Shown here piece after piece: positions 20,591 to 38,070 of a stretch of 53,408 nt of DNA; positions within the stretch are counted from its first letter, which is position 1, and every line of letters begins with the position of its first letter. Origin of the DNA: an uncultured Lentisphaeraceae bacterium (lineage in GTDB: Bacteria; Verrucomicrobiota; Lentisphaeria; Oligosphaerales; Oligosphaeraceae); the NCBI GenBank assembly GCA_964407145.1, contig CAYOUR010000002.1, positions 1 to 53,408 on the forward strand. Reading direction: 5' to 3'. The notes below the pieces were generated by a model. That model searched no databases, was not told where the DNA came from, and saw only the letters and a list, made by a program, of their open reading frames with translations. A program made the position numbers and the translations under genes.

Positions 20591-23500
20591 TCATTTGGCG
20601 TCGGGTTGCGGGTGGCAGAGGGCGCCGACCGGGCAGATGTCAATCAGTTCTTCGGCCAGGTTTTCGGTGGCCTGTTCCCAGGACTGCCCCCAGGGAGGGG
20701 CGACTTCCGTGTATCCGCCGCGGTGGTGGAAGCAGAGTCCGGCGCCGCGTTGCCGGGACAGGGCCACGCAGCGTCCGCAGAGCACGCATCGTTCCGGGAA
20801 GAAGGCGAGCCTGGCGGTCCGAATGACCGTGGTCGCGGGCGGGTTGGGTGACGACTTGCGGGCGCGGAACGTACGCATCAGGCGACGGAGCAGGCAGGGG
20901 TCTTTTTTGGCGCAGGCCGAGCAGCGCAGGTCATGCCGGTCCAGCAGCAGCTCAACGGCGCGGCGCCGGAACGCCGCCACCCGTGGCGTTTCATTTTCAT
21001 AGGAATGGCCGGCAACCGCCAGGGTGTCGCAGGCCGGCACGAACAGGTCAAGGGCCTGGTCATAGACCGAACAGACCAGGCAGCGGGCGTTTTCCTGACA
21101 GCCCGGCAGATGGCACAGGGTCGGGATGGCGACGCCATGGGCGGCGGCCAGCTGCAGGATGGTCTGGCCTTCCTGCCAGGGGACGGTTGCACTGTCCAGC
21201 CAGATGACCTTGTCCTGACCGGCCAGGGGCGGGACGGCCAGGACTTCGTCGGCGGTTTCCAGCGGTGCGGTGGCTTCTTCCGGCGTGTTGGCGGTTTCTG
21301 CCGGTGGCGGCGCCGTCGCGGGGCGGCCCGGGGAGACGGCGATGACGGCGTGCCGGGGGCAGAGGTCGCGGCAGACGCCGCAGCGGACGCAGAGGTCCTG
21401 GTTGATGCGGTGTTGTTCAAAAGGCGTGAAGGGGATGGCGGCGGCGGCGCAGTTCTGGGCGCATTTGGTGCAGCCGATGCAGTCTTCCGTGATTTCGAAC
21501 CGGCTCAATTCGCGGCATTTGCCGGTTGGGCAGGCCCCTTGGAGGTGGGCCTCGAACTCTTCGCGGAAATAGCGGATGGCGCTGAGGATCATGTTGGGCG
21601 CGGTTCGTCCCAGTCCGCAGAGGGCGCCCTGGCGGAGGTGGTGGGCCAGCGCCTGGATGTCCTCCAGGACGTGGGTGGGCTGGGGGGTGTCATGGCGTCG
21701 GGTCAGGCTGACGACCATGGCGTGGAGCCGCCGCAGTCCTTCCCGGCAGAGCGTGCATTTGCCGCAGGACTCGCCGCGGGTGAAGTCGAGAAAATAGGCC
21801 GCGATGTCGACCAGGCAGTCGCGTTCGTCGAGGACGACCAGGCCGCCGGAGCCCATCATGGCGCCATGGGCGGTGAGGGCTTCGTAGTCGACCGGCAAGT
21901 CGAAATGCCCGGCGGGCAGGCATCCTCCGGACGGCCCGCCGATGAGCACCGCCTTGAGTTGGTGGCCGTCCTCGGCGCCGCCGCCGATGTCTTCGACGAT
22001 GGTGCGGATGGATGTCCCCATCGGCACTTCGATCAGTCCGCCGCGCCGGACTTTTCCGGCCAGGGCGAAGGTCTTGGTTCCGGCGGAGGTGGCTGTTCCG
22101 AGGTTGGCGAAGGCCGCTCCGCCGTGGCGGACGATCCAGGGCACGCAGGCGAAGGTTTCGACATTGTTGATCAGGGTGGGCTGCCCGAACAGTCCGGCCG
22201 TGGTCGGGAAGGGCGGCCGTCGGCGTGGGATGCCGCGGCGTCCTTCCAGGGATTCCAGCAGGGCGGTTTCCTCGCCGCAGACGAAGGCTCCGGCGCCGCG
22301 GAAGAGGACGATGTCAAAGTCCGGATTCAGGCGGGCGAGCAGGCCCTGGTCGCGGCACCGGTCAATGGCCCTGGTCAGGGTGTCGATGGCCTGGGTGTAT
22401 TCTTCGCGGATGTAGATGACGGCGTCCTGGGCGCCGATGACGCGGGCGGCGATGAGGATGCCTTCCAGGACGCGGAACGGAAATGATTCCAGGAGCATGC
22501 GGTCCATGAAGGCTCCGGGGTCGCCCTCGTCGGCGTTGCAGATGACGACTTTGCCGGGGGCTGCGGTTTCCCGGGCAAGCCGCCATTTGCGGGCGGTGGG
22601 GAAGCCGGCGCCGCCGCGGCCGCGCAGCCGGGCCGTTTCCAGCTGCTGCAGGATGGCCTCTGACGACGAGTTCAGGGCCGTGTCCAGGGCGGCGAAGCCG
22701 CCGTGGCGGCAGTAGTCGTCCAGATCGAGCGGCGAGGATTCGCCGCCGCGCTCGGTGGCAATGGCCCGGCCGCCGCCGGTTCCGCCATCACCGCCTTTAC
22801 TGCCTTTGGCGTGGTCTACGGCGGCGGCTTTGGCGCAGTCCTGGTCTTGTTCGCGGTCGGTGGTTTGGCAGGGGCAGGAGGCCTGGCCGGCATAGAGTGC
22901 GTCGAGCATGGAAAGGGCGTGCCAGCGCAGGTTGGCCAGGGCGCCCTGCGGGGAGAAGTGTTCGTGAAGCAGTCGCGGGACCATGTCCGGCTGGACGTGG
23001 GGATAGTGGAAGACGTGTCCATTGCTGGCGATGGTGACTTCCGGCGCGCGGAAGGACTTGCCGGTGCAGCTGACTTCCCGGACGCGCACGGGCAGGCCGT
23101 GCCGGGCGACTTCGCGGCGCAGGTTCTGCCAGACGTTGCCGGCGCCGGCGGCCCGGCAGGACGAGCAGCGGCAGAGGCGCGCCTCCGCGCCGCCGTCGCT
23201 GTTGCCGGCGTGGCGTTGGGGGGTATTGCTGCGGGCGTCGTGAGCGGCTGTCTGCTCTTCGAGTATGGCTTGCCGGAAAGCGCTGATCACATCGGGGACG
23301 GTGGCCGGTTCGACCCAGCCGAAGATATGGTCGTCGATCTGCACGGCGACAGCCAGCATGCAGCAGCCCAGGCAGGCCACCTTGGTGACGGTGAACCGGC
23401 CCTGGTCGTCGGTGTCCTCTTCGCCGGTGATGGCCAGTTCGCGCCGGAAGGCGTCATAGACTTTTTCGGCGCCTTTGACGTGGCAGGCCGCGCCGACGCA

Positions 23501-23683
23501 GACGCGGACCAGGTGTTTTCCGGCCGGTTTGGTTCGGAAGCCGCTGTAGAAGGTCGCCGCCGAGGTGATGGCGGCCATGCCGACGCCGGTTTCCCGGGCC
23601 AGGGCGGTCAGTTCCGGCAGGGGCAGGTAGCCGAATTGTCGCTGGATGGCATTGAGCCGCGGCAGGAGGTCGTTGACGATCAT
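20591..23683 (-). CDS. Fused NADH dehydrogenase module: NuoE-like [2Fe-2S] + thioredoxin-like ferredoxin + NuoF (FMN/NADH) + 2x[4Fe-4S] + NuoG N-terminal FeS domain (1030 aa)
   Basis: RVCVGAACHVKGAEKV is NuoE-like. LRGRGGAGFPTARKW...ICNADEGDPGAFMDR is NuoF. CIGCTKCAQNC and CVRCGVCRDLCP are ferredoxin motifs. CHLPGCQENARCLVCSV...HDLRCSACAKK...CVLCGRCV is NuoG-N-like. The start is moved to MIVNDLL at 23683 and overlaps the upstream stop as ATGA. Confidence 0.85.
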   Translation of the reverse strand: MIVNDLLPRLNAIQRQFGYLPLPELTALARETGVGMAAITSAATFYSGFRTKPAGKHLVRVCVGAACHVKGAEKVYDAFRRELAITGEEDTDDQGRFTVTKVACLGCCMLAVAVQIDDHIFGWVEPATVPDVISAFRQAILEEQTAAHDARSNTPQRHAGNSDGGAEARLCRCSSCRAAGAGNVWQNLRREVARHGLPVRVREVSCTGKSFRAPEVTIASNGHVFHYPHVQPDMVPRLLHEHFSPQGALANLRWHALSMLDALYAGQASCPCQTTDREQDQDCAKAAAVDHAKGSKGGDGGTGGGRAIATERGGESSPLDLDDYCRHGGFAALDTALNSSSEAILQQLETARLRGRGGAGFPTARKWRLARETAAPGKVVICNADEGDPGAFMDRMLLESFPFRVLEGILIAARVIGAQDAVIYIREEYTQAIDTLTRAIDRCRDQGLLARLNPDFDIVLFRGAGAFVCGEETALLESLEGRRGIPRRRPPFPTTAGLFGQPTLINNVETFACVPWIVRHGGAAFANLGTATSAGTKTFALAGKVRRGGLIEVPMGTSIRTIVEDIGGGAEDGHQLKAVLIGGPSGGCLPAGHFDLPVDYEALTAHGAMMGSGGLVVLDERDCLVDIAAYFLDFTRGESCGKCTLCREGLRRLHAMVVSLTRRHDTPQPTHVLEDIQALAHHLRQGALCGLGRTAPNMILSAIRYFREEFEAHLQGACPTGKCRELSRFEITEDCIGCTKCAQNCAAAAIPFTPFEQHRINQDLCVRCGVCRDLCPRHAVIAVSPGRPATAPPPAETANTPEEATAPLETADEVLAVPPLAGQDKVIWLDSATVPWQEGQTILQLAAAHGVAIPTLCHLPGCQENARCLVCSVYDQALDLFVPACDTLAVAGHSYENETPRVAAFRRRAVELLLDRHDLRCSACAKKDPCLLRRLMRTFRARKSSPNPPATTVIRTARLAFFPERCVLCGRCVALSRQRGAGLCFHHRGGYTEVAPPWGQSWEQATENLAEELIDICPVGALCHPQPDAK

Positions 23684-25398
23684 GGCGCGGTCTCCAGGCA
23701 GAGCAGGCGGTTGTCCGTGGTGCGGATGATGATTCTGGCCTGGGCGAAGGCCGGGATGGCCACGACCTGGGCGCCCAGGTCGTGTTCGGCGGTCAGGATG
23801 AAACGGTCCGGGGACGGTTCGACGACCAGGAGCTTGCCGTCCAGGTTGACCGCGATGATTTTGCCGTCGACGACGACCGGTGAAGCATAGAAGCCGTTGT
23901 CGAAGTTTTCCTCGAAGACCTCCTCGCCGGTGGTGGCGTTGAGGGCGATGACGCTGCCGCCGCTGGTGAACAGGTACATGGTGTTTTGGGCGACGACCGG
24001 TGAAGCCACGTCCGGCATGGGCACATTGTGGTTCTGCCAGCGCGGGGTCGGGCTGAGGGGCTCGAAGGCCGCCGCGACGGCGCCGGAGTTGGCGAAGAAG
24101 AACAGTCCCAGGTCGGGGAAGGCTGAGGTCGCCACTTCGCCGCCCAGACATTCATTTTCCCAGAGCTGCCTGCCGGTATTGAGGTCGAAGGCCTCGGCCT
24201 TGGCGTTGCCGGCGGTGAAGAGGACGGGCGTGCCCTCGGGGGTGACCAGCAAAGACGGCGAGGACCAGGAGGTGGCGGAGGGTCGGGAGGTTTTCCAGAG
24301 CGTCTTGCCGGTGGTCGTGTCCAGGGCCAGGATTGTCTGCTGCTTTTCCGTGTCGTGCTGAAGTACGAGGGTGTTTCCGGCCAGGAGGGGCGAGGAGGCG
24401 TAGCCGTAGAGGATTTCGAAGTCCGGCAGCTGGCTGGTCCAGCGCCGGTTGCCCTGGTGGTCGAAGGCGACGATCTGGCCGGTGGCAAAGACGGCGAAGA
24501 CGCCGGTGTCATCAACGGCGGCGGTCGGCGCGGCGTAGCCGGTGTCGTCGGTGACGGCCGGGACTTTGGCGGCGCGGTCAACGGCGCCGGTCCAGAGCAG
24601 GCGGCCGTCGTCCAGGCTGAAGCAGTAAACGGCCCGGGACTGCCGGTCGCCGCCGGTCAGGAAAATGCGGTTTTCCCAGACGACCGGCGAGCTGTAGCCC
24701 GGCAGGGGGATTTTGGTCGACCAGGCGACCGTGAGGTCCCATTTGGCCGGCAGGCGGTTCCGGTTGGGGAGGACGGAGCCGCGGAAGCCAGGCCAGAATT
24801 CGGCGGCCCGTTCCAGGGCTTCGCCGAGGGGGAGGGTCGGGGTGGCGTCCGTGGCTGGCTGGTCCGGCCCGTTGCCGCGGGTTTGTTCATGGTCCGGGCT
24901 GGTTGCCGCCGCCGCCGTCAGTCGTCGTGGCCGGCTGGCGTCGCGGAGGGTGTTGGCGGCGAGGGCGATGACGACGACGGCCAGGCACGCGGCCAGTCCG
25001 TGGCGCAGGCAGGTGTTCTGGCGGAGGCGTTTCGCGGCCGGCGCGCCGGACGGTTTTTTCAGTTCATGGCTGCTGGTGACGGCCATGACCGCGGCGCCGG
25101 TGAGGAAGGCGATCAATCCGGCTGCGGCCAGGGCGCGGCCGAGGTCCATGCGGTCATGGTGGCGGAAGTAGGTCTGCCGGTACAGGAGGTCGAGTTCACG
25201 GATGACGTTGACGAAGTTTTGGTCGGCCGCCTTCTGGCCGATTTGGCTGCGCAGGTCCTGGAGGATGGCCTCGGTGTCCGGCAGCGCCTGGCGGGCCCGG
25301 TGGGTTTCGGCGGCCAGGAGGCAGCCCAGCAGAATCAGGAAAGCCAGGGCGACCAGGCAGAGATTCCGGCTGAGGTTGTACAGGAGGGAGCGATTCAT
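23680..25398 (-). CDS. PQQ-like (BamB-type) beta-propeller repeat protein, N-terminal membrane anchor
   Basis: TM segment LCLVALAFLILLGCLLAA, then FWPGFRGS...GYSSPVVWENRIFLTG and repeated propeller blades. The start is moved to MNRSLLY at 25398. Confidence 0.8.
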   Translation of the reverse strand: MNRSLLYNLSRNLCLVALAFLILLGCLLAAETHRARQALPDTEAILQDLRSQIGQKAADQNFVNVIRELDLLYRQTYFRHHDRMDLGRALAAAGLIAFLTGAAVMAVTSSHELKKPSGAPAAKRLRQNTCLRHGLAACLAVVVIALAANTLRDASRPRRLTAAAATSPDHEQTRGNGPDQPATDATPTLPLGEALERAAEFWPGFRGSVLPNRNRLPAKWDLTVAWSTKIPLPGYSSPVVWENRIFLTGGDRQSRAVYCFSLDDGRLLWTGAVDRAAKVPAVTDDTGYAAPTAAVDDTGVFAVFATGQIVAFDHQGNRRWTSQLPDFEILYGYASSPLLAGNTLVLQHDTEKQQTILALDTTTGKTLWKTSRPSATSWSSPSLLVTPEGTPVLFTAGNAKAEAFDLNTGRQLWENECLGGEVATSAFPDLGLFFFANSGAVAAAFEPLSPTPRWQNHNVPMPDVASPVVAQNTMYLFTSGGSVIALNATTGEEVFEENFDNGFYASPVVVDGKIIAVNLDGKLLVVEPSPDRFILTAEHDLGAQVVAIPAFAQARIIIRTTDNRLLCLETAP

Positions 25399-25444
25399 GG
25401 TCTGAGGCAGTCTGGCTTCGGGAGTGAGGTGGGCGGTGTCGCGG

Positions 25445-26068
25445 TCAGCGGATGAAGTTGGTCTGGGTGCGTTGTTCGAGGATGGGTCTGGGCACCTTGC
25501 CCTTGGCGTTGTCAATGCATTTCAGCAGCCAGGCCATGTTGCGGGCCAGGGTGCGCAGGGTCTGCTGGCCCTCCAGGTCGGCCTTGCCCTCTTCGGGCGT
25601 CAGGCCATGCATTGAATTCCAGTACTGCGAGGATACGACCGGCATGTTGGACATGGTGAAGTACTTGTTGAGCCGGTCGAAGGCGGCGCTGGCGCCGCCG
25701 CGGCGGCAGTTGACGACCGCGGCGGCCGGCTTGAAGGCGAAGGCGTAGTAGCGGGAGAAGAACATCCGGTCGAGGAAGGCGCACAGCGAGCCGTTGGGGC
25801 CGGCGAAGTACACGGGCGAGCCGACGATCAGGCCGTCCGCCCGGCACAGGCGTTCGGCGGCCTCGTTGACCAGGTCTCCGGTGAAGATGCAGCCGTTGCC
25901 GGTTTTGCGGCAGGCGCCGCAGGCGGTGCAGGCCTGGATCGGCTTGTCGCTGATATGCAGCAGATGCGTGTCGACGCCTTCCTGCTGCAGCTGGTCGGCG
26001 ACGGTCTGCAGGGCGGCGCTGGTGCAGCCATTGCGGCGGGGGCTGCCATTGATGAGCAGGACATTCAT
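25445..26068 (-). CDS. Iron-sulfur flavoprotein (Isf) / NADPH-dependent FMN reductase family
   Basis: MNVLLINGSPRRNGCT flavodoxin-like start. Compact CTACGACRKTGNGC (Cx2Cx2Cx6C) cluster motif. GGAGAAAA SD upstream. Confidence 0.8.
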   Translation of the reverse strand: MNVLLINGSPRRNGCTSAALQTVADQLQQEGVDTHLLHISDKPIQACTACGACRKTGNGCIFTGDLVNEAAERLCRADGLIVGSPVYFAGPNGSLCAFLDRMFFSRYYAFAFKPAAAVVNCRRGGASAAFDRLNKYFTMSNMPVVSSQYWNSMHGLTPEEGKADLEGQQTLRTLARNMAWLLKCIDNAKGKVPRPILEQRTQTNFIR

Positions 26069-26142: not shown

Positions 26143-27438
26143 CTACGTGTTCGCCGGCGGGGCGGAGTTGCTGGCGGCTGCGGCGGCGGGCTGGCTCCGG
26201 CTCGGGCGCCGTTGCCGGGCCTGTTCGACCGGGCAGAGTGCGAAGCAGCGGCCGCAGACCAGGCAGAGGGTCTGGTCGATTTCATAGGTCCGCCGTTCCG
26301 GGTGGCGTCTGGCCAGGGCGATCAGTTCGGCCATGACGACGAGGGCCAGGACGGCGCCGGCGCCGGTCATGCCGAAGCGCGCGGTGCGTTCGGCCTGCCA
26401 GGCGGCCTGGCGCAGTTCCGTTTCCGGCCGTCCGGAGACGATGAAGGCGATGACGGCTTCGGAGTCGCTGAATTCGTCGAGTTCCCTGACCAGGGCCACG
26501 TCCGGGTTGGTGGTGGCGAGCAGTGGCGCCAGGGCGAAGCCGAGCCAGGCGCCGGCGGCGAGGGCCAGGGGCGTCATCGTCAGCAGCCGTTTGACGCGTT
26601 CCCGGCCGCGGGCGTGTTTTTCGGGCCAGTTGGGCGGTTCCGGTGCCAGGATGGCGCCATTGGGGCAGGTCTGTTCGCACAGTCGGCAGTTGACGCAGTC
26701 GCCATGGGTGATGGTGAGTCTTTTGACGCTGAACAGCGTGAGGAAGCGGAGCAGCACGCCATACGGGCAGAGATAGCGGCAGAAGGGCCTGGAGACAAAG
26801 ACGCCAATGGCGAGCAGGACCACGCCGAGATACACGGCCGGAGCCGCAAAGGTGAAGGTGAAGATGGGGAAGAACGGGTCCAGCTGACAGAGGTGAAAGG
26901 CGCCGCCGGCCGCGGCGGCCACAACGGACAGCAGGAGAATCAGCACGGGCAGGAACCGCAGCAGGCGGTCCAGGGCCATGGGCACGCGAACGGTTTTCAG
27001 GTGGACGAGTTCCTGGATGGCGCCGAGGGGGCAGCCGCCGATGCAGAACAGCCGTCCAAACAGCAGGGCGGTGGCGAGCGGCAGGACGACCAGGAGGGTG
27101 AGAGTGAGGGGCAAGGCGTTGTCGCCGGCCAGGGCGGCGGCCAGGTTGAGATGCAACCCGACCGGGCAGGGGCAGGGGCGCAGCCAGAAGCCGCTGACGA
27201 TCAGGGTGAGGCCGGAAAGCGCGAGCAGGGCGCGGCGGGATTTCAGGCGATGGGCGGCCAGCCCGGCCAGGAGCATCAGGCCGACCAGGATGGCGACCCT
27301 GACCCACCCGTCGTCAAACAACGACGGTTCCAGGTCCATGAGCGGTTCGGTGTAGTCCTGGAATTCGGGTTTGGGGAATCTGGCCTGGGCGGTGATTTGC
27401 GCCAGGGTGGGCAGGAGCCAGGCGGGCAGGACCATCAT
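26143..27438 (-). CDS. NapH/NosH/CcoG-like integral-membrane polyferredoxin
   Basis: Two CX3CP motifs (CIGGCPLG, CRYLCPYG) between TM helices. CVNCRLCEQTCP and CLVCGRCFALCP 4Fe-4S motifs. GGAGGTG SD upstream. Confidence 0.8.
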   Translation of the reverse strand: MMVLPAWLLPTLAQITAQARFPKPEFQDYTEPLMDLEPSLFDDGWVRVAILVGLMLLAGLAAHRLKSRRALLALSGLTLIVSGFWLRPCPCPVGLHLNLAAALAGDNALPLTLTLLVVLPLATALLFGRLFCIGGCPLGAIQELVHLKTVRVPMALDRLLRFLPVLILLLSVVAAAAGGAFHLCQLDPFFPIFTFTFAAPAVYLGVVLLAIGVFVSRPFCRYLCPYGVLLRFLTLFSVKRLTITHGDCVNCRLCEQTCPNGAILAPEPPNWPEKHARGRERVKRLLTMTPLALAAGAWLGFALAPLLATTNPDVALVRELDEFSDSEAVIAFIVSGRPETELRQAAWQAERTARFGMTGAGAVLALVVMAELIALARRHPERRTYEIDQTLCLVCGRCFALCPVEQARQRRPSRSQPAAAAASNSAPPANT

Positions 27439-30374: not shown

Positions 30375-30434
30375 GGGGGATGTGCTGTCGATGTCGGTCA
30401 ATCCGGTTGGGTTTCATTGGCTGGGGTGGTTCAG

Positions 30435-32237
30435 TTATGCGTGGCCGTGGTCTGGAGGCGGTTTGGTTCCGGTCTGATCGGGCGCCGGCGCCGGCGCCGG
30501 CAGGTGCTGGTATTGGCCGGCGGCCAGGAAGGCCCTGGTAATGAAGATTCGCGGGTAGAGCTGTTCGGAATACCACAGCTGGGAGAAATATAATCCGACC
30601 GGTTCCGGGGGCAAGTCATCGAGGTTTTCCGGGGCGGTGCGGAGGAAGTCGAGGCCGCGCTGGATGGCCTGGCGGGTGTCGGCGCCGGTGTCGTGGCCGG
30701 TCGCCAGGGCGGCGATGGCCCTGGCCGTGAAGATGAATCGCGGCGTGGCTCCGGGGCGGTCATCGGCGCCCCAGGCGCCGGAGGGCTGCTGGGCAGCCAG
30801 CAGATAGTCGCGGGCCTTGGCGCACCATGGCGTCGCCAGGCCGCAGAGGTTTTCCAGGACGACGGCGGTGCCGTAGACCGGGGCCAGGCCGTCAGGGGCG
30901 AGCTGGTCGCCGAACCAGAGCGGCAGGAAGGCGCCGTCGGCCCGCTGGTTGCGGGACAGGAAGTCGAGGATGCGTTTTTGGCAGCGTTCGGCCGCGTGTC
31001 GCCAATCGGGCTGGAGGGCATGGCGCCAGAGGTCAAGGGCGTGGTAGGCGTGGGCGGAGAGGTCGGGGCAGCTGCGGTCAAAGGGAAGCTTCCCCCAGCC
31101 GCGGCAGAAGGTGGGGATACCCCCGTCGCGGTTTTGCAGGTTGATGAGCCAGGCACAGCCGTCGGCGATTTCTGGTGTCAGGCGGTCGGGCTGGAGGGCG
31201 TGGAGGGCGACCAGGGCCGCGGCCGTGTCATCGGCGTCCGGGACCGCGCCGGACTGATGTGTCCAGGCCCAGCCGCCGGGTGCGGCGCCGGTGAATGGAT
31301 GGACGGCGGCGAACTGCCGTTGCCGGATGATGTCGGCGAGGTCTTCGCGTTCGGCGGCGGTCATGGCCGGCGCTGCCGCCTTGGCGGCCAGGGCGGTGCA
31401 CCATTGTGCCAGGCTGGTGTCGATTGGCCAGGCGCCGTCAGGCCGGACCGTGGTGGTGAGGAACCGCTCCGCGGCCAGGGCGACCGGATGGGCGCGAAGG
31501 TTGGCGGCCGACAGGCAGATGAGGCAGAAGGCGGTGAGCGGCGCGGCCTCCAGAAAGCCCCCGGAGGGCGGTTGCAGTCTGGTGAGCAGGCGGAGCACGG
31601 CGGGGATCAGACGGCGCCGGAGGCGGGCAGGCAGGCCTGGCCGGGCATGAGTGGCCTGGGCGACGCCGATGGCGATCAGGGCGGGGAGGGCGTAGCTGAC
31701 CACGCGCAGATTGAGGAAACGGAAACAGGCCCGCGGCAGCAGCGCCAGTTCAAACGGCAGCTGGGGCATCCGGCTCCAGGGGTGGTCGTCGTCGTGAAGC
31801 AGGTCTGAGGCTGTGCATAGTGCCAGGATCGGCACGGAGAAGGTCAGATCCTGGCCATATTTTTCCAGGATGGCAGCGCGGATGGCGGCGGGCGAGAAGC
31901 CGCCAAGTCTGGCGGTCAGGTACGCCCGGGCGCGGGTTGCGGCCGGGGAATCGGCGTCGGCATGGGCCAGGGCGGCGTAGCCCAGCAGGCTGGCGGTGAG
32001 ATTGGGCGGGGATTCCGGGGTGTCGCCCCAGGCGCCGTCGGCCAGTTGGGTGTCGGCCAGCCATTGGCAGGCGGCGGCAATGGTCTTGGCGTGCCGGTCC
32101 GGGGCGGCCAGGGCCAGGCTGATGGCGGCCGTCGCCGTGGAGACGGCTGAAGGTGCGAGGTGGCCTGACCAGTCCCCTGACGGGAGGCGACGGCGCAGCA
32201 GTTCGGTGCTCAGGCGTTGATAATCGTGGCAGGTCAT
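30435..32237 (-). CDS. Squalene-hopene-cyclase-like class II terpene cyclase (600 aa)
   Basis: DADDTAAALVAL matches the DxDDTA catalytic motif. QW-type repeats present (QLADGAWG, QNRDGGIP, QQPSGAWG). The C-terminal GLYFSQLWYSEQLYPRIF resembles the SHC C-terminus. Confidence 0.8.
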   Translation of the reverse strand: MTCHDYQRLSTELLRRRLPSGDWSGHLAPSAVSTATAAISLALAAPDRHAKTIAAACQWLADTQLADGAWGDTPESPPNLTASLLGYAALAHADADSPAATRARAYLTARLGGFSPAAIRAAILEKYGQDLTFSVPILALCTASDLLHDDDHPWSRMPQLPFELALLPRACFRFLNLRVVSYALPALIAIGVAQATHARPGLPARLRRRLIPAVLRLLTRLQPPSGGFLEAAPLTAFCLICLSAANLRAHPVALAAERFLTTTVRPDGAWPIDTSLAQWCTALAAKAAAPAMTAAEREDLADIIRQRQFAAVHPFTGAAPGGWAWTHQSGAVPDADDTAAALVALHALQPDRLTPEIADGCAWLINLQNRDGGIPTFCRGWGKLPFDRSCPDLSAHAYHALDLWRHALQPDWRHAAERCQKRILDFLSRNQRADGAFLPLWFGDQLAPDGLAPVYGTAVVLENLCGLATPWCAKARDYLLAAQQPSGAWGADDRPGATPRFIFTARAIAALATGHDTGADTRQAIQRGLDFLRTAPENLDDLPPEPVGLYFSQLWYSEQLYPRIFITRAFLAAGQYQHLPAPAPAPDQTGTKPPPDHGHA

Positions 32238-33163
32238 GAGGTCAATCCCATGGCCACCAGGCCGTAGGCGGTATATTCCAGGTCGGGCGTGTCGTCGCCG
32301 GGGAAGGCGCCGAAACCGCCGGCGTCGGTGATGGTCTGACGGAGAAAAGGCTTGAGGGAAAACGGCGCGGGTCGCCCGCAGCAGTGCAGGGCCAGGCTGG
32401 CCGTGGCGGTCGAGAGCAGGTCCGGGCCGGGCGCCATTGGCGTGGCCGGGAAGCCGCCGGTCTGAGTCTGGAGGGTGGCGAGGCGTTCCAGGTCGGGGCG
32501 GAGCGCGTCGGGCCTGGGACGGCCGTCATTGAGCAGCATGAGTGCGGCGGCGGTGGCGTTGACGGCCGGAGTTGAGTCGCCGGGCAGGTTGGCGAACAGG
32601 CCGTCGGTCAGGCGGTACTGCTCCAGGCGTTGGGGCGTGAAGTCCAGGCCCAGGTCGCCGGCCAGGGACCAGCGCAGGAGCTGCGAGTAGGGCGACCATG
32701 GGTCGTGGTGGGGGAAGCGTGCGGCGCCAACGCCGGCGTCGGCGCCGGCGTCGGCATTCAGGTCATCCCAGGCTTCGCGCAGGTCTGGCCGGAGCGGTGG
32801 CGTCAGCCGGCGGCGCCGGATGATGGCGGCGAAGCGGGCGATGGCCGGCTGGCGGAGATACAGAAGCAGGGCGTGTGAGCGGGTAAGGCAGGCGAGGTGG
32901 ACCAGGTCCAGGGAGTTCGGGGCAAAGCCGCGCAGGTAGGTTTCCTGTGCCGGCAGGTCGAGGCGGAGGCCGGCGGCAGCGGCGATCAGCAGCCCGAACA
33001 TGGTGTAGTAGAGGTCGGCATTGCCGTGCCGGTCGGCGAATCCGCCGGCGGGCGCCAGCCGCGAGCGCACGAAGTCGAGCAGGCGCGCCGCCGTGTCCGG
33101 GTGGCATTTTTGCCAGCCGGCGCGGATGGTGCGGAACATGATGATGGAAAGCGGAGTCGGCAT
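32234..33163 (-). CDS. Prenyltransferase/squalene oxidase repeat protein (single alpha-alpha toroid, 309 aa)
   Basis: Repeated xxGGF motifs (APAGGFADRHG, QTGGFPATP, DAGGFGAFPG) resemble protein-prenyltransferase beta / terpene cyclase repeats. ATGA overlap with the cyclase gene. Confidence 0.7.
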   Translation of the reverse strand: MPTPLSIIMFRTIRAGWQKCHPDTAARLLDFVRSRLAPAGGFADRHGNADLYYTMFGLLIAAAAGLRLDLPAQETYLRGFAPNSLDLVHLACLTRSHALLLYLRQPAIARFAAIIRRRRLTPPLRPDLREAWDDLNADAGADAGVGAARFPHHDPWSPYSQLLRWSLAGDLGLDFTPQRLEQYRLTDGLFANLPGDSTPAVNATAAALMLLNDGRPRPDALRPDLERLATLQTQTGGFPATPMAPGPDLLSTATASLALHCCGRPAPFSLKPFLRQTITDAGGFGAFPGDDTPDLEYTAYGLVAMGLTS

Positions 33164-33195
33164 GTGTGGGGGCTATTTCGGTCCGGCGCCGCCGG

Positions 33196-34728
33196 TCATT
33201 TTTCCGGCAGGATTTTTTCCGTGATTCGGCAGAGGAGGATTTTCAGCTGGATGTTGCTGACGCCGTCGATGGCCTGGAAGGCCTGTTGTCGGAAGTCGCG
33301 ATACAGTTGCGTCACCGCCGCCGCGGCCTCTGTCCGGGAGACGCGGTTGGCGTGGCCATGGAGGGTGACCAGGGAGGCCGGGTCGTCGTCCTCGAGGTCG
33401 TCCAGGAGCTGGTAGGCGACGCCCATGGCGTCGGACAGTTCGAGCAGGGCCTGTCGGTGGCGATCGGCCTGGCCGGCGGCGATGGCGCCGAGGAGGAAGG
33501 CGACGCGGAAGGCCGGCGCTGTTTTGAGTCGGAAGGTGGCCATGACGGTGTCGAGGCCGGGGTGACCGGTGTGCAGTTCGAATTCGCGGGCCTGTCCGAG
33601 GGCGAGCTGGCAGTGGCCGTCCGCGGCGGCCGCGACCAGTTCGGCCTGGATGGTTGCCGGGACCGGCGCCGACGCCAGCAGCCGGTAGCCTTCACCGACC
33701 AGGTAGTCGCCGACATTGATGGCGACGGGTACGCCGAGCTGGTGGTGGAGCGTCTCCTCGCCGTAGCGGAAATCGTCATCGTCTTCAATGTCGTCGTGGA
33801 TCAGTGACGCTTTGTGGAAACATTCGACGGCGATGGCGATGCGGTCGACCCAGTCCGGGATTTCCGGCGCTTCGGTCAGTGCCAGGTAGACGAGGGTGGT
33901 CAGCAGGGGCCGGTAGTGCTTGCCGTGCCGGGAGAGGGCGCTGACGGCGGCGGCGTTGAAGCGGCCCAGGTCGTGGTGCCGGGTGCAGGCCAGGCAACGG
34001 CGCAGGGCGTCGTCCTGGAACAGGGCGGCGAGGTGGTTTTTGACCTCGGGCAACGGTGGTGTGAGAACCGGGTTTTCTTCGGGGATGGCGAGGGCGTAGA
34101 GCAGTTCATCCTGGTCGAATTCGGTGTTTCGGCAGCCGTCGCGGTTGAGTGGAATGGCGTATCCCGGCACGGCGTGTCGGTCCATGGCCGGGAAGGTCCT
34201 GGTCAGGGCATCGAGGCAGGACACGCCGATGACGGCCTGGATTTCCCCGGCCTCGACCCAGGCGGCGACGCGGGACGACGATTCCGCGACGAGCGTGGCC
34301 ATGCCGAGGCGTTCGGCCTGTTCCCGCCAGGCGGCGACCGGGCATCGTCCGCAGCCGGCGCAGAGCAGTCCCAGGTCGTCGAATTCGGCCTGGCAGTGTT
34401 CATGGTCGCGGATGCAGACGGGCAGGAGCAGCAGCCGTCGTTCGCGGGGGATGCGGCGGATGGCTTTTTCCCAGATGACGTTGCTGATGCAGACGACGCA
34501 CCAGTCACGCCAGGCTTCCGGCAGGGCGTTGTCGGCGAGGAAGCCGGTGGCGAGGCGAATCAGGCGTGGCAGCGGCACGGGCGGCCGGAGCGCCAGGCCG
34601 CTGACGCGGATCCGGAGACGGGCCCGCAGGTCGCGGCGCAGCTCCGGCGTTTCGGGCACGCACGGTGTGCTTGCGCCGCCGGTCGCGGTGTTTTCCGGCG
34701 CTGCCGGGGTGGTGTTGAGGTCAGCCAT
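33196..34728 (-). CDS. DUF116-like Cys-rich domain fused to trans-polyprenyl diphosphate synthase (510 aa)
   Basis: N-terminal LLLLPVCIRDHEHCQA...CAGCGRCPV...VIGVSCLDAL is DUF116-like. C-terminal LIHDDIEDDDDFRYG (FARM DDxxD) and YQLLDDLEDDD (SARM). The start is moved to MADLNTT at 34728 and overlaps the upstream stop by 8 nt. Confidence 0.8.
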   Translation of the reverse strand: MADLNTTPAAPENTATGGASTPCVPETPELRRDLRARLRIRVSGLALRPPVPLPRLIRLATGFLADNALPEAWRDWCVVCISNVIWEKAIRRIPRERRLLLLPVCIRDHEHCQAEFDDLGLLCAGCGRCPVAAWREQAERLGMATLVAESSSRVAAWVEAGEIQAVIGVSCLDALTRTFPAMDRHAVPGYAIPLNRDGCRNTEFDQDELLYALAIPEENPVLTPPLPEVKNHLAALFQDDALRRCLACTRHHDLGRFNAAAVSALSRHGKHYRPLLTTLVYLALTEAPEIPDWVDRIAIAVECFHKASLIHDDIEDDDDFRYGEETLHHQLGVPVAINVGDYLVGEGYRLLASAPVPATIQAELVAAAADGHCQLALGQAREFELHTGHPGLDTVMATFRLKTAPAFRVAFLLGAIAAGQADRHRQALLELSDAMGVAYQLLDDLEDDDPASLVTLHGHANRVSRTEAAAAVTQLYRDFRQQAFQAIDGVSNIQLKILLCRITEKILPEK

Positions 34729-35917
34729 AGGCGCCAAATCCGCAGAAGTAGTATTTTTTGGCCAGTCGGTAGGCCCAGGATTTTTCCGGGATGACGCCTT
34801 CGGGGTCATGATGTCCCGGCAGGATGGAAGCCCGGTCGAGTTCGGCGAGGGCATCGCGGTTGGAGGAGTCGATGGGGTGGTGTCGGCGCAGGAATGCGGC
34901 CAGTGCGGCGGGGTCTTCGAGGAGGATGCAGCCGCGGGACCGTTCGGCGGTGAAGGCCCGCAGCGCCGGCAGGAAGTCGTCCTGCTGCAGGATGGCCTGG
35001 AGGTTGTCGGCGGCTGGGTTGAGACGGCTGGAGCAGAACTGGAGCGGCGGGCAGAATTCGACGGCGCCGGACGGCGCGATGTGGTGCGAGAGTCCGGTTG
35101 CGCCCGGGCAGAGGGCGTTGCCCTGGTGGTCCCAGTAGGCGTCGATGATGAGCAGTTTGGCGGTGCGGCGTTGGTCAACCACGAATTGCCGCAGCTGGCG
35201 AATCTGTTCGCGGCTGAGGGCGTTTTCGGGTTCCGGGTGGGCGCCGGCTGGCCGGTAGATATAGTACCAGAGGTAGTGCACGCCCTTGCCGGTGAGCAGG
35301 TCGAGATAGTCCTTTGACACCAGCTCGGGGAAGTTCTGGCGGGTGATGCTGGCGGCCACGCCGGTGAACAGCTTTGCCTGGACCGCGGTCTCAAGGGCCT
35401 GGAGGGCGCGTTGGAAGACGTCGTCGCGGCCGCGTCGCCGGGCTGATTCATCCTGCAGTCCTTCGATGCTGATCAGAGGCGTCACGTTGCCGAGTCTGGC
35501 CAGCCGGCCGGCAAAGTCCGGGGTGAGGGCCAGGCCGTTGGTGAACAGCTGGAAGTAGCTTTTCGGGTGGGCGGCGAAGAAGTCGAGCAAGTCGTGGTGC
35601 AGGAGCGGTTCGCCGCCCAGGATGCCGAAGAAGAAGGACCGGTGCTGATTGGCCTGTTTGACCAGGGCGTCGAGCTGTGTTCGCGAAAGCTGCTGCGAAG
35701 GACTGGTCTGCTGCACCCAGCAGCCGCGGCACTGCAGCTGACACTGATTGGTGATGGACAGCATCAGGAAGGCCGGAAAGAACGGCTCGCCATTCCGGAG
35801 GCGCTTTTCAAAGGCTCGGACGGCGCCGGCGCCGCGCCAGGCGAAGTTGATGGCGAGGGAGCGCAGCACCGGCCAGGAGCAGCCGCGGGCAATGCGGCAC
35901 AGGGCGACGGGATTCAT
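34721..35917 (-). CDS. Radical SAM protein (398 aa) with short Cys-containing C-terminal (twitch/SPASM-like) region
   Basis: LMLSITNQCQLQCRGCW carries CX3CX2C. GILGGEPLL. C-terminal ALCPGATGLSHHIAPSGAVEFCPPLQFC. The start is moved to MNPVALC at 35917, an ATGA overlap with the ferredoxin gene. Confidence 0.85.
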   Translation of the reverse strand: MNPVALCRIARGCSWPVLRSLAINFAWRGAGAVRAFEKRLRNGEPFFPAFLMLSITNQCQLQCRGCWVQQTSPSQQLSRTQLDALVKQANQHRSFFFGILGGEPLLHHDLLDFFAAHPKSYFQLFTNGLALTPDFAGRLARLGNVTPLISIEGLQDESARRRGRDDVFQRALQALETAVQAKLFTGVAASITRQNFPELVSKDYLDLLTGKGVHYLWYYIYRPAGAHPEPENALSREQIRQLRQFVVDQRRTAKLLIIDAYWDHQGNALCPGATGLSHHIAPSGAVEFCPPLQFCSSRLNPAADNLQAILQQDDFLPALRAFTAERSRGCILLEDPAALAAFLRRHHPIDSSNRDALAELDRASILPGHHDPEGVIPEKSWAYRLAKKYYFCGFGAYG

Positions 35918-36609
35918 TGCGGGTCGTCCTTGAACAGGGGAGGAGTGGTGGGGCGGGAAGCGTGGCGCGACTTGAGGCGGGCCAGAAGACCGCGGGGGTC
36001 CCCAGCCGCCGCCGCCGCCGCCGGCGGCGGCGGCGGCGGTTCCGCGCCATTGATGGGCTCTTCCTTTGACTTTGGGAAGATGATGGCCTGCCGCGGGCAC
36101 ATGCGGGCGCAGGCCGGGCAGTCGGTCTTGCAGCTGGCCGGGGCCGTCACCAGGATTTTTCCGGAACCGTCTTTGGAATAAACGCCGAACATGCAGAAAT
36201 CCAAGCACTTGCCGCAGTTGACGCAGCGTTGTTGGTCGATGACGGGGAACCACGGAATCCATTCATCGTGTTCCGGCGCTTCGGGCGGCGGTGGCGGCGT
36301 TGTTGGGGCTGTGTCCTGATCGAAGGTGACGCCGAGCGCGTCTGCGGCCTCGTGGATGCTGCCGGTTCGCAGGTTGATGACGCAGGCGGCCGGGAAGTCC
36401 GGGAACATGGCGTGAATGGCGCGCGGATGGCAGGCCACGATTCGGTCGCAACCGCCGGGCAGCTGCGGCTGCGGCCTGGCCGCCAGGCGGCAGAGGTCCG
36501 GCACGACCGTCACCTGATGGCCGTGGCGACGGCAATTGGCCGCCAGGGCGGCCAGGGCCCGGGAGTCGAGGTGATGATAAAGCCGGCAGGTGCAGAAGAG
36601 GATGTGCAT
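35914..36609 (-). CDS. 4Fe-4S ferredoxin-domain protein with Pro/Ala-rich linker and tail
   Basis: CVNCGKCLDFC and CKTDCPACARMCP motifs. The N-terminal domain has a CxC (ILFCTCRLY). The track start at 36639 is GTG; ATG at 36609 is chosen. Confidence 0.7.
   Translation of the reverse strand: MHILFCTCRLYHHLDSRALAALAANCRRHGHQVTVVPDLCRLAARPQPQLPGGCDRIVACHPRAIHAMFPDFPAACVINLRTGSIHEAADALGVTFDQDTAPTTPPPPPEAPEHDEWIPWFPVIDQQRCVNCGKCLDFCMFGVYSKDGSGKILVTAPASCKTDCPACARMCPRQAIIFPKSKEEPINGAEPPPPPPAAAAAAGDPRGLLARLKSRHASRPTTPPLFKDDPQ
36005..36039. repeat. Perfect (GCC)6/(GGC)n trinucleotide palindrome inside the ferredoxin gene
   Basis: gccgccgccgccgccgcc|ggcggcggcggcggcgg, read directly. On the minus strand it encodes PPPPPPAAAAAAG. 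Confidence 0.95.
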
Positions 36610-36750
36610 GGGCAGGTGAATCCTTTCTCTGCGGAACACGTGGGTGATACGGTAAACGCTGCCTTGTCGGAATGTCGGGTGGTATCGCTGTCCCGTGGCC
36701 CGCGCCGCCGCTGGCCCGGTATTGCCCTTGCGGATGCCGCCAGAGCCGGT

Positions 36751-38070
36751 TCATGGTTTCAGGTCAAAGGCCAGGGCGACATCGCCGTGGCGGAGATAGA
36801 GCTTGCCATTGGCGATGATGGGGTGGCACCAGTGCTGCTGTTGACCGTCACGGATGGGGAAGCGCGAGACTTCGGCAAAGGCGTGCGGGTCCGGTTTGAC
36901 GAGGAAGACGTTGCCGCGCCCGGCATCGTAGAGGTAGATCATGTTGTCGGCGGCGATCACTTGTCCCACGCCCTGTCCGCTGATGCGTTCGGAAAAAATG
37001 GTTTTGCCGGTGCTGGCCTGGATGCAGGTCCATTTGTTGGCGCCATGCGAGGTGCCGAAGAGGTAGTCGCCCAGCCAGACGAAGCCGTGGTGCTGGGAGC
37101 AGAGGTCGAAGTTGGTCCAGAGGACGTTGGCCTGGCTGGCGTCGTCGTTGAGCCGGAACATCATGGAGCCGTGGCCATAGCCGTTGGAGAGGAACAGCCT
37201 GCCATCCTGGTAGACCAGGGAATTGACGATGATGTCATAGCGCTTGATGGTCCGGCCGGCGTCGAGGATTTTGGCGAAGTTGATGGACCAGGCCAGGTCG
37301 CCATTTTCGGGGTTGACGCCGAAGACGTAGTTGGTGGTGGCGCCGACGATCTGGCGGGTGCCCTGGTGCCGAATCATGGTCGGGGTGACGTAGCTGGCCT
37401 TGTCCCGGAGCGATTTTGTTTGCCAGCGGGTGCGGCCGGTTTTGCGGTCGAGGGCGACGAGGGTGGTCTGGGTGCCGCCGGGCGTGACGTAGACGGCGTC
37501 GTCATCGACCAGCGGTGATTCCGCTGTTCCCCAGCCGCCGTTGACGCCGCCGAAATCGTGTTTGGCATTCACCTTCCAGGCCAGCTTGCCGGTTTCGGCG
37601 TTGATGCAGACGACTTCGCCGCTGCCGGAAATCGCGAATACGTCACCTTTGCTGACGCTGGGGGTGGTTCGGGCGGCCGGATAGTCGCGCGACCAGGGGC
37701 TGCCGTATGCGGTCTGCCAGAGCACCTTGCCGTCGGCGATGTCCAGACAGGACATGAATTCGACCTTGCGGCCGTCGTCGTCCCTGATGCCGGTGAAGAA
37801 TATTTTGCCGTTGGCGGTGACTGGCGAGGAATAGCCGGCGCCGATGCCGTCTGTTTTCCAGAGCCTTGGCGGGCCGTTGTCGGGCCAGGATTTCCGGAGT
37901 CCGGTCTCGCGGTAGACGCCGGTGTGTCCCCTTCCGCGCCATTGGCCGACGTCTTCGGCGACGGCGGTGTTGAGGTGGGCGAGCCCCAGGAGGAGGGTGA
38001 GAAGCAGGAAGATTCGGGGCGGTCTTGCGGGCGCGTCCGGCGCCGTCAGGCGGTGGCGGTAGGTCGTCAT
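36751..38070 (-). CDS. PQQ-like (BamB-type) beta-propeller repeat protein, secreted
   Basis: Signal peptide IFLLLTLLLGLAHLNTAVA, then WRGRGHTGVY...GAGYSSPVTANGKIFFTG. First gene of the co-directional cluster. Confidence 0.8.
   Translation of the reverse strand: MTTYRHRLTAPDAPARPPRIFLLLTLLLGLAHLNTAVAEDVGQWRGRGHTGVYRETGLRKSWPDNGPPRLWKTDGIGAGYSSPVTANGKIFFTGIRDDDGRKVEFMSCLDIADGKVLWQTAYGSPWSRDYPAARTTPSVSKGDVFAISGSGEVVCINAETGKLAWKVNAKHDFGGVNGGWGTAESPLVDDDAVYVTPGGTQTTLVALDRKTGRTRWQTKSLRDKASYVTPTMIRHQGTRQIVGATTNYVFGVNPENGDLAWSINFAKILDAGRTIKRYDIIVNSLVYQDGRLFLSNGYGHGSMMFRLNDDASQANVLWTNFDLCSQHHGFVWLGDYLFGTSHGANKWTCIQASTGKTIFSERISGQGVGQVIAADNMIYLYDAGRGNVFLVKPDPHAFAEVSRFPIRDGQQQHWCHPIIANGKLYLRHGDVALAFDLKP

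Follow-up and report, generated by a model that had tools for sequence, protein, structure and literature searches.

The cluster and its anatomy

The window analysed here is the whole stretch of 53,408 nucleotides at positions 1 to 53,408 of contig CAYOUR010000002.1 (GenBank assembly GCA_964407145.1), from an uncultured Lentisphaeraceae bacterium, and the system in question is a cluster of 14 consecutive minus-strand genes at 20591-38070, delimited by the open reading frame (ORF) listing, codon-position GC and translation and numbered here from g14, the first gene of the operon, down to g1. A preliminary description of this DNA had proposed that these genes form a dedicated NADH-driven reductive system linked to the synthesis or remodelling of a cyclic polyprenoid in the envelope. 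Its account of 14 minus-strand genes with gaps of 141 bp or less was confirmed by ORF listing and codon-position GC, and the six ATGA overlaps that it had listed on the coding strand (TCAT on the plus strand) were found at exactly those positions (23680-83, 27435-38, 27977-80, 28935-38, 32234-37 and 35914-17), as was an 8-nt overlap at 34721-28, which reads TCAGCCAT on the plus strand and ATGGCTGA on the coding strand. The remaining intergenic gaps within the block were all 141 nt or less, and the block was bordered by a convergent plus-strand ORF (19514-20539) and by a divergent plus-strand gene starting at 38583. The 14 genes make up one tightly packed, probably co-translated unit and, as their order is kept in distant genomes, the arrangement lies far beyond chance. 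The features of the cluster, in the direction of transcription, are:

38071-38582, no strand: intergenic region between g14 and the divergent gene, carrying one sigma-70-like site (38391-38362, minus)
g14, 36751-38070, minus: first operon gene; PQQ_2 (BamB-like) propeller (PF13360, E=8e-32)
g13, 35914-36639, minus: 2x[4Fe-4S] ferredoxin domain (Fer4 families) behind a fused Cys-rich N-terminal domain (CxC...DLC...AC)
g12, 34721-35917, minus: radical SAM protein (PF04055), CX3CX2C at residue 59
g11, 33196-34728, minus: Cys-rich DUF116 domain (PF01976) fused to a trans-polyprenyl diphosphate synthase (PF00348, E=5e-36)
g10, 32234-33163, minus: single alpha/alpha-toroid, kin to prenyltransferase beta subunits and class II cyclase domains
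g9, 30435-32237, minus: class II terpenoid cyclase resembling squalene-hopene cyclase (SHC), 600 aa, SQHop_cyclase_C/N, no signal peptide
g8, 28935-30401, minus: membrane-anchored 8-bladed PQQ_2 propeller (PF13360)
g7, 28273-28938, minus: short, N-terminally anchored protein of NHL repeats; its invariant motif, F-x-G-C-C-N-P ... T-x-E-K-G, holds two vicinal Cys
g6, 27977-28192, minus: 71 aa; hydrophobic, twin-arginine-like N-terminus (RRQF) and four Cys spaced as Cx6CxxCx5C
g5, 27435-27980, minus: poly-[4Fe-4S] ferredoxin, NapG/NosG-like (Fer4 families), predicted to be exported by twin-arginine translocation (Tat)
g4, 26143-27438, minus: NapH/NosH-like integral-membrane polyferredoxin, Fer4_5 (PF12801)
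g3, 25445-26068, minus: Isf-like FMN reductase (PF03358, E=2e-31) with a CxxCxxCx5C motif
g2, 23680-25398, minus: PQQ_2 propeller (PF13360, E=5e-29) with about three hydrophobic segments in a long N-terminal region
g1, 20591-23683, minus: 1030-aa fusion of a NuoE-like [2Fe-2S] domain, a HydB/NfnB-type flavoprotein and a NuoG/HydA N-terminal iron-sulfur (Fe-S) part

We divide the cluster into module A, also called the core (g13-g9: ferredoxin-like protein, radical SAM protein, DUF116::polyprenyl synthase, toroid and DxDD cyclase), and module B (g8-g1 together with g14: propellers, Tat ferredoxin, NapH-like protein and fused Bfu-type protein). All protein families named in the preliminary description were recovered by Pfam, and the NHL repeats of g7 by profile; its NuoE/F/G label for g1 gave way to a better one, the Bfu type. 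No cluster protein reached a curated NCBIfam cut-off, no CxxCH haem motif occurred in any of them, and neither the cluster nor the other large ORFs of the 53-kb window encoded squalene synthase, molybdopterin or H-cluster domains. The absence of a molybdopterin subunit, cytochrome or H-cluster partner was thereby borne out, and assignment to a nap, nos, rnf, nuo, hydrogenase or formate dehydrogenase locus was rejected, there being no catalytic partner and no haem motif. The claim that this is not a canonical hopanoid locus also stood, the relevant models scoring far below cut-off and squalene genes being absent from the window.

Promoter-like and terminator-like consensus sites inside the block were no more frequent than in shuffled sequence, and the site at 38391-38362 is a consensus match only, the count of such sites not exceeding the shuffled expectation. 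A second sigma-70-like hexamer pair was seen at 30614-30587 (minus), in the 3' part of g9 and about 190 nt upstream of the g8 start. It marks a possible internal promoter for the redox half, at a site count not above chance.

Module A encodes a cyclase, a polyprenyl synthase and Fe-S proteins

The DADDTA motif of g9 (DADD at residue 334) aligned with DVDDTA of the A. acidocaldarius SHC (1gsz), a g9 His aligned with the SHC 'TAHVLE' stretch, and SHC was the best solved-structure match of the protein. Against the curated models for SHC and oxidosqualene cyclases, g9 scored 72 bits versus a cut-off of 431 (TIGR01507, hopene_cyclase) and 84 versus 323 (TIGR01787, squalene cyclases). It fits the published 'SHC-like' clade by taxon range, length class (550-700 aa), kept catalytic residues and non-squalene context, and its syntenic homologues were found in Planctomycetota, Verrucomicrobiota, Lentisphaerota, Bacteroidota, Acidobacteriota and others. 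The toroid gene g10 always lay between g11 and g9; its product has no DxDD motif and, as a single sequence, no Pfam match, and the family profile (A3) matched class II cyclase C-domains and RabGGTase/FTase beta subunits (E~1e-8).

Both DDxxD motifs are present in the synthase half of g11 (DDIED at 312 and DDLED at 443), with Ala and Ser at positions -5 and -4 ahead of the first. Small residues at these positions argue, by the chain-length rules, only against a strict C15 product. All 16 NCBIfam chain-length models scored far below cut-off (16/16; best 97 bits versus 450). The AlphaFold model of g11 (predicted local distance difference test score, pLDDT, 87.5) resembled farnesyl and geranylgeranyl diphosphate synthases in its synthase domain (template-modelling score 0.78-0.83 relative to the target), and this domain dominated the Foldseek output of the full model. 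The DUF116 half carries invariant Cys including CxxCxxC, and a DUF116-only profile found nothing in the PDB; DUF116 has been predicted to be an Fe-S/flavodoxin-like electron-transfer domain, with a polyprenyl synthetase fusion noted in Pirellula (PMC5898192).

The radical SAM protein g12 was 56-59% identical to its syntenic relatives, and its top PDB match was SkfB (E=2e-10). Every NCBIfam match of g12 was far below cut-off, with many radical SAM subfamilies similarly weak, so that g12 fell into no known subfamily, and assignment as the HpnH adenosyl-hopene transferase was rejected (TIGR03470, 46 bits versus 225). Among the related loci, which are numbered here from L001, a longer radical SAM protein (c15, 520-630 aa) took the g12 position in L017, L018, L020, L021, L030, L034 and L049, from Planctomycetota and Desulfobacterales, and suggests an alternative tailoring step there.

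In the family alignment (A5) of g13 the motifs CxxCxxCxxFC and CKTxCPACARxCP were conserved, and the g13 profile matched the ferredoxin domains of HdrA and HydB; its N-terminal domain is a stand-alone gene (c8) in other phyla. The gene may start instead at ATG 36609. The DADDTA motif of g9, the paired DDxxD motifs and small -4/-5 residues of g11 and the CX3CX2C of g12 argue that these enzymes may well be catalytically competent.

Module B encodes a Bfu-type flavoprotein and a probable membrane and periplasmic Fe-S series

Residues 5-136 of g1 are NuoE-like, residues 306-780 aligned end to end with NfnB/HydB (E 1e-170 to 1e-145), and a Fer4 pair at 733-781 forms the C-terminal 2x[4Fe-4S] part. 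The best PDB matches were NfnB (9n5u, E=8e-170) and HydB (7p5h, 8a6t and 7q4v, ~1e-145), with NuoF reaching only ~1e-92. A complex I identity was rejected, since TIGR01959 (NuoF) gave 411 bits versus 559 and NuoG was matched only at 3-199 of 606, and on these alignments the Bfu-type (HydB/NfnB-like) label suits the fusion better than NuoEFG does. No catalytic domain was detected in g1, the [FeFe]-hydrogenase model being covered at 4-206 of 571 only, and of a BfuA-like module, the potential catalytic partner, g1 carries only the Fe-S N-terminal part. As g1 is nearest to bifurcating Bfu subunits, ferredoxin or flavodoxin may be a co-substrate.

At a redox-only locus, L167, the gene after the NuoEF-like protein (18770-20338) encodes Fer2_4, Fer4_20 and Pyr_redox_2 domains and is GltD/NfnC-like; by its domains, the L167 module resembles a complete NfnABC-type enzyme.

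The NapH-like g4 has about six hydrophobic segments, two CX3CP motifs (CIGGCP at 132 and CRYLCP at 220) and two CxxCxxCxxxCP ferredoxin motifs (CVNCRLCEQTCP at 248 and CLVCGRCFALCP at 392), the motif Cys being invariant in the family alignment (A2). It scored 49 bits versus 213 for NapH (TIGR02163) and 47 versus 1000 for NosR, and no NapA, NapB, NapC or NosZ was found in the window. The Tat ferredoxin g5, with 17 Cys and an MNRRHFF leader whose RR pair is kept in homologues, was the most conserved gene of the cluster (50-67% identity in relatives). A gene of 64-81 aa stood in the g6 position in L001, L002, L003 and L167, with g6 identities of 34-49%. The chain of iron-sulfur proteins is a probable route by which electrons from NADH or ferredoxin cross the inner membrane.

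The compact Cys motif of g3, CTACGACRKTGNGC, starts 47 residues past the start Met and follows the Isf pattern CX2CX2CX4-7C; in Methanosarcina Isf, too, the motif lies near residue 47. This is the one variable gene of the cluster: the close relative L166 has it, L001, L003 and L168 lack it, and a g3-like gene (51% identity) lies beside module A in the Desulfobacterales locus L017.

Propellers and candidate periplasmic partners

The four propeller-type proteins differ in what they conserve. In g8, whose AlphaFold model (pLDDT 88.6) shows an N-terminal helix anchoring an 8-bladed propeller, many polar residues are invariant (RNHGxSRT, GQCPL, EQQ and KD), and identity between phyla of the Planctomycetota-Verrucomicrobiota-Chlamydiota (PVC) group is 45-77%; g2 and g14 conserve only structural positions of the Gly/Trp type. 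The nearest folds to the g8 model were BamB and a cofactor-less tetrathionate hydrolase, at 13-17% identity. True PQQ dehydrogenases were considered and rejected, PF01011 matching as single repeats only and TIGR03075 giving 18-44 bits versus a cut-off of 480. We regard g8 as the most enzyme-like of the propellers and the best candidate for a periplasmic enzyme.

The hydrophobic N-terminus of g14 is a predicted N-terminal signal peptide, and a propeller gene occupied the g14 position in L001, L002, L003, L166 and L168. The start of g2 is most likely ATG 25398 (572 aa) rather than TTG 25515, and in all relatives g2 was placed after the NapH-like gene. For g7, the family profile (A4) matched NHL domains at E=1e-22; Bacteroidota carry a form longer by about 100 aa, which in some copies has a Tat signal and a CxxCxxxCP motif at the C-terminus. 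Candidate acceptors of electrons from g5 are the paired Cys of g7 and the clustered Cys of g6.

Gene order is conserved and the two modules are separable

Hundreds of full-length relatives of the DUF116::polyprenyl synthase fusion were found, and it is encoded in at least 588 species-representative genomes; the matches listed included Planctomycetota, Verrucomicrobiota, Lentisphaerota, Kiritimatiellae and Bacteroidota, together with Acidobacteriota, Gemmatimonadales, Myxococcota, Desulfobacterales and Chloroflexota. Its nearest named relatives were Lentisphaerae metagenome-assembled genomes (MAGs; 71% identity). The order g14-g13-g12-g11-g10-g9-g8-g7-g6-g5-g4-(g3)-g2-g1 was found again in L001 (a 5.6-Mb genome), L002/L005 (Planctomycetes bacterium syqfu), L003 (a Lentisphaeria MAG), L007 (a rumen MAG), L166 (a 2.5-Mb contig, JGI 3300053716) and L168 (an Opitutales MAG). 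Identities of syntenic genes across these Lentisphaerota, Planctomycetota, Opitutales and rumen MAGs ranged from 34% (g10) to 67% (g5). L166 has the full cluster including g3, with an FGGY kinase gene beyond g14 as in the window. More distant relatives keep only 13 of the 14 genes, the Isf-like g3 being present in some and missing from others. At the junction of the two modules, g9 and g8 themselves overlap by 4 nt in relatives (14059-14062 in L001 and 10001-10004 in L168).

Where species loci had adequate flanks, at least two of g13, g12, g10 and g9 lay beside g11 in 25 of 31. A profile scan of metagenome contigs with the NapH-like g4 returned at least 530 relatives, and the closer of these (42-47% identity in the cases with a tblastn score for g4) carried the full cluster. 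The synteny of the two halves, which the preliminary description had named as a check, was therefore found in related genomes and in a second phylum group, but in most genomes with either module the two are not adjacent.

Without the core, module B forms a conserved block of its own of about 14 genes, seen on many metagenomic contigs and also in L167. Its first part comprises two or three propellers, a longer NHL protein, a small Cys protein, the Tat ferredoxin, the NapH-like protein and a propeller, and it continues with a NuoEF-like and a separate NuoG-like protein, a propeller, a GT4 glycosyltransferase, an ABC ATPase and an FtsX permease of 900-1090 aa. Three or more additional genes, among them those for a propeller, an ABC ATPase and an FtsX permease, also follow g1 in the full-cluster relatives L086, L088, L090, L092, L097 and L168; in the window these genes are absent downstream of g1, with no remnant detected.

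The modules were found joined in at least four layouts. In PVC bacteria a propeller precedes the core, which is followed by the propeller and NHL genes; in Bacteroidales (L012, L015, L019, L027 and L075) the core comes first and is followed by one or more propellers and the NHL gene; in a Bacteroidetes MAG (L057) the core lies inside module B, between the last propeller and GT4; and in a Planctomycetaceae MAG (L049) the core and module B are divergent. Partial sets also occur, such as propeller, core, Isf-like gene and propeller in Desulfobacterales L017, and GcvH, CobW, core, propeller and GT4 in Gemmatimonadales L025. In neighbour-joining trees of g9-g13, examined for joint inheritance of the modules, the loci linking A and B were enriched in one clade of PVC anaerobes and Bacteroidota, which also holds core-only and truncated loci. 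The cluster is a recurrent juxtaposition of two separable modules, rather than an indivisible system. Because at least four independent layouts across phyla are a classical signature of coupling, we rank functional coupling above coincidence.

Outside the PVC anaerobes and Bacteroidales, genes flanking the core (L022, L023, L025, L026, L031, L033, L040, L078 and others) encode a GcvH-like protein with a lipoyl-type Lys context (EGFKA), a CobW-like GTPase, a lone g13 N-domain and a NifS-like class V aminotransferase. These flanks hint at sulfur or metal-cluster chemistry.

L165 (GCA_900198705.1, a 3.98-Mb contig) and L166 encode an identical g11 protein and share a DDE transposase just upstream. 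The L165 cluster ends after g10 and is followed by zeta-toxin/AAA genes, a gene for an FAD protein and two B12-radical SAM genes; this difference could be due to rearrangement, strain variation or misassembly.

The rest of the window

The genes flanking the cluster are functionally unrelated to it (MatE, FGGY kinase, sodium:solute symporter, sulfatases, 2-oxoacid:ferredoxin oxidoreductase and hybrid histidine kinase), and the context is consistent with an anaerobic PVC bacterium that degrades sulfated polysaccharides. Features located there are:

488-2998: 2-oxoacid:ferredoxin oxidoreductase pair
42851-42937: tRNA-Leu(CAG)
43191-44879: sodium:solute symporter
47357-48754 and 51596-53122: two sulfatases

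GC skew was positive on the plus strand across the window (1-53408), from +0.03 to +0.24, and was strongest, at about 0.2, over 24-38 kb; with every gene at 24-38 kb on the minus strand, the cluster has a markedly C-rich coding strand. GC content dipped to 0.515 at 14001-16000 versus about 0.65 elsewhere in the window. This low-GC stretch falls between the genes for a hybrid histidine kinase (10219-13977) and an amidohydrolase (15820-17298), and the one reading frame tried across 14100-15700 contained 23 stop codons. An ORF of 1332 aa at 3528-7526 (minus) had a coding-type GC3 of 0.85 and no Pfam match at E <= 1e-4. The convergent ORF at 19514-20539 (plus) begins MCVWTGYIG, like the start of an N-terminal-Cys (Ntn) amidotransferase, and had no Pfam match.

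Discussion

We tentatively favour, at a little less than an even chance, the view that the cluster is one operon whose two evolutionarily separable modules work on the same envelope lipid. Substrate, product, direction of electron flow, periplasmic acceptor and physical contacts would then be as follows. Module A would act at the cytoplasmic face of the inner membrane, where the synthase half of g11 would build a regular head-to-tail polyprenyl diphosphate, probably C20 or longer, and g9, probably with the toroid g10, would protonate and cyclise this polyprenyl chain instead of squalene; the DUF116 domain, g13 and the radical SAM protein g12 may supply a radical or reductive tailoring step. 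In module B, g1 would oxidise NAD(P)H, perhaps together with a second partner (ferredoxin or the Isf-like g3), and pass electrons through the cytoplasmic [4Fe-4S] clusters of g4 to the periplasmic Tat ferredoxin g5, which would serve the Cys-rich pair g6/g7 and the enzyme-like propeller g8, with the propellers g2 and g14 as putative scaffolds. In relatives, a MacB/LolCDE-like ABC exporter, often with GT4, may complete module B. Given this exporter and GT4, the periplasmic part most likely modifies the cyclised lipid, hands it on toward the outer envelope, or both. Of the function first proposed for the locus, the existence of a conserved unit was upheld; that it is driven by NADH and reductive is a plausible reading, but the likeness to Bfu enzymes allows a ferredoxin or flavodoxin co-substrate, and the exporter and GT4 of the relatives point no less to an envelope lipid being exported or processed than to the remodelling proposed.

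Several observations weigh against this view of a shared lipid. Module B adjoins module A in only 6 of the 31 adequately flanked species loci, and 14 of 19 module-B metagenomic loci with at least 9 kb upstream lack the core, which the other five have (5/19). Other phyla flank the core with GcvH-like, CobW-like and NifS-like genes instead, so that the lipid pathway would there be independent of module B. No transporter, flippase or glycosyltransferase for the cluster was found in the window, sequence alone does not fix how long the g11 product is or what g9 acts on, and the literature searched contained no experiment or published function for any component.

These same distributions would fit two functionally independent modules, with A making a membrane terpenoid, B serving as a separate periplasmic redox and export system for an unrelated substrate, and the two merged in one transcription unit in some lineages without biochemical coupling. 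Both are mostly found alone, module B can stand by itself as a block of some 14 genes that includes GT4 and ABC/FtsX genes (many metagenomic contigs and L167), and module A is elsewhere partnered by GcvH, CobW and NifS. We nevertheless think independence rather unlikely, because A and B are juxtaposed in at least four layouts in several phyla, including a core placed within module B in L057; because propellers, Isf and GT4 recur beside the core even where NapH and the ferredoxin are missing; because 4-nt overlaps span the module boundary in relatives; and because a propeller of the module-B type, g14, stands upstream of the core in PVC clusters, so that the modules are interleaved. A different kind of coupling would make module B the electron supply of module A: g1 would bifurcate electrons from NADH, sending a low-potential branch through Isf and g13 to the radical SAM protein and DUF116, with the NapH-like/Tat-ferredoxin branch as an exergonic sink in the periplasm or quinone pool. 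The much closer likeness of g1 to bifurcating HydB/NfnB (including the extra C-terminal 2x[4Fe-4S]) than to NuoF, the need of the core Fe-S and radical SAM proteins for low-potential electrons, the Isf-like gene beside the core at L017, where a NapH-like gene was not detected, and the GltD/NfnC-like protein with an NAD(P)H domain at the BfuA position in L167, as in NfnABC, all agree with such a supply. Yet module B occurs at loci where no radical SAM or terpenoid gene adjoins it, most genomes with the core lack a nearby module B, bifurcation is not readable from sequence, and the four periplasmic propellers and ABC exporter would be left without a role; we judge this explanation improbable.

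NapH and NosH homologues are regarded as quinol dehydrogenases in Nap and Nos systems, and the terpenoid might accordingly be a membrane redox partner or cofactor of the NapH-like complex, the cluster then being an electron-transport chain with a dedicated lipid carrier. Quinone tails usually come from a polyprenyl synthase, and the modules are probably co-transcribed, judging from gene packing and overlaps. This idea is very improbable, however, as the cluster has no gene for an aromatic head-group or for a UbiA/MenA-type prenyl-to-arene transferase, the products of DxDD cyclases are redox-inert carbocycles, and the core is widespread without module B. Hardest to credit is a divergent but ordinary hopanoid locus with squalene-hopene cyclase and HpnH. 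The match of g9 to SHC as best solved structure, its kept DxDD motif and the weak HpnH match of g12 point that way, but the scores fall far short (72 versus 431 bits for SHC and 46 versus 225 for HpnH), squalene synthase, HpnCDE, HpnG and HpnN are absent from the window, and the adjacent synthase would make regular polyprenyl diphosphates. The published phylogenies also describe the 'SHC-like' clade as lying outside SHC, and g9 fits that clade by taxon range and context.

In two phylogenetic studies, 'SHC-like' cyclases are named as the main uncharacterised branch of triterpenoid cyclases and as a possible key to unassigned lipid fossils, and the present locus, with relatives in hundreds of species, places that branch in a definite genetic setting that can be tested. 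The five-gene Fe-S/radical SAM cassette is amenable to heterologous expression, and the recurrent partnership with module B suggests periplasmic processing or export of the lipid with cytoplasmic reducing power. A Bfu-type flavoprotein and NapH-like conduit without a terminal reductase would, if true, amount to an undescribed delivery of low-potential electrons to the periplasm, hosted by anaerobic PVC and Bacteroidota bacteria that include rumen and digester organisms. In its furthest form, which we consider unlikely, the proposal is of an unrecognised envelope system in which electrons pass from the Bfu-type g1, as a potentially electron-bifurcating NAD(P)H/ferredoxin oxidoreductase, through the NapH-like protein and the Tat ferredoxin to NHL and propeller enzymes that reductively process and, with an ABC/FtsX exporter, deliver a regular polyprenoid cyclised by the 'SHC-like' cassette, a possible source of orphan polycyclic terpane biomarkers. 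For the tricyclic terpanes among these fossils the proposed precursor is tricyclohexaprenol, and their source is still debated.

Relation to known systems

In the literature searched, no description was found of the whole cluster, of the five-gene cassette as such, of its link to module B or of module B itself, so that the set did not map onto a characterised pathway. The terpenoid half is a known but uncharacterised family that had been flagged earlier, and its combination with module B was not found in that literature. Santana-Molina et al. (2020, PMC7306690) describe 'SHC-like' cyclases of Planctomycetes with kept catalytic residues and a genomic context pointing to a non-squalene precursor, and the clade, of unknown function, spans the PVC group, the Fibrobacterota-Chlorobiota-Bacteroidota (FCB) group and Acidobacteriota (PMC7306690; 2025 phylogeny, PMC12324236/PMC12414744). 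The cluster shares the taxon range, length class and catalytic residues given there, and both g9 and its polyprenyl-synthase neighbour fit. The passages of these papers considered here treat the cyclase and its general context; they do not mention the five-gene Fe-S/radical SAM cassette (PMC7306690; PMC12324236/PMC12414744), nor do they connect the cyclase with propellers, an ABC exporter or a Bfu-type/NapH-like/Tat-ferredoxin conduit. A Bipolaricaulota isolate (2025 preprint) carries DUF116, IspH, SHC, an HpnH-annotated radical SAM protein and a polyprenyl synthetase in one gene cluster.

Hopanoid loci (HpnCDE, SHC/HpnF, HpnH, HpnG and HpnN) likewise pair a DxDD beta-gamma class II cyclase with a radical SAM protein for an envelope lipid, and the exporter and glycosyltransferase of the cluster's relatives are comparable to HpnN and HpnI. 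The cluster differs in having no squalene synthesis genes, the exporter of its relatives is of the ABC/FtsX and not the resistance-nodulation-division type, and hopanoid loci, unlike the cluster, have no redox conduit or propellers. A precedent for the proposed substrate is given by the sporulenol system of Bacillus (the heptaprenyl synthase HepS/HepT, YtpB and SqhC) and by the actinomycete epoxy-polyprenyl cyclases Lon15 and AtoE, where SHC-family cyclases act on regular head-to-tail polyprenyl chains that come from a neighbouring or associated polyprenyl synthase, as proposed here. Those systems belong to other taxa and lack Fe-S/radical SAM and periplasmic partners, whereas the cluster lacks a YtpB-type class I synthase and an epoxidase.

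On the redox side, the Fer4_5 protein g4, with two CX3CP and two [4Fe-4S] motifs, and the Tat polyferredoxin g5 directly upstream of it, with a 4-nt overlap, match the arrangement of NapGH, NosGH and MauMN. The cluster has no NapAB/NapC, NosZ or methylamine dehydrogenase, however, g4 has extra transmembrane segments, and electrons would enter from a soluble Bfu-type flavoprotein, whereas Nap and Nos are thought to use the quinol pool. The NuoE-like, HydB/NfnB-like and HydA/NuoG N-terminal Fe-S modules of g1 are those of Bfu enzymes (HydABC, NiFe-HydABCSL and NfnABC), but here the three parts are in one polypeptide, and the window lacks the third, catalytic site (H-cluster, NiFe, formate dehydrogenase or GltD-like domain). 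Module B of the relatives ends with an ABC ATPase and an FtsX permease, as found in MacB/LolCDE-type ABC transporters, although the transporter genes are not in the window itself. The cluster propellers share the BamB fold, but at only 13-17% identity, and the conserved surface of g8 is enzyme-like. The combination of an 'SHC-like' cassette with a Bfu-type/NapH-like/Tat-ferredoxin/propeller module is built from parts whose types are known from these systems.

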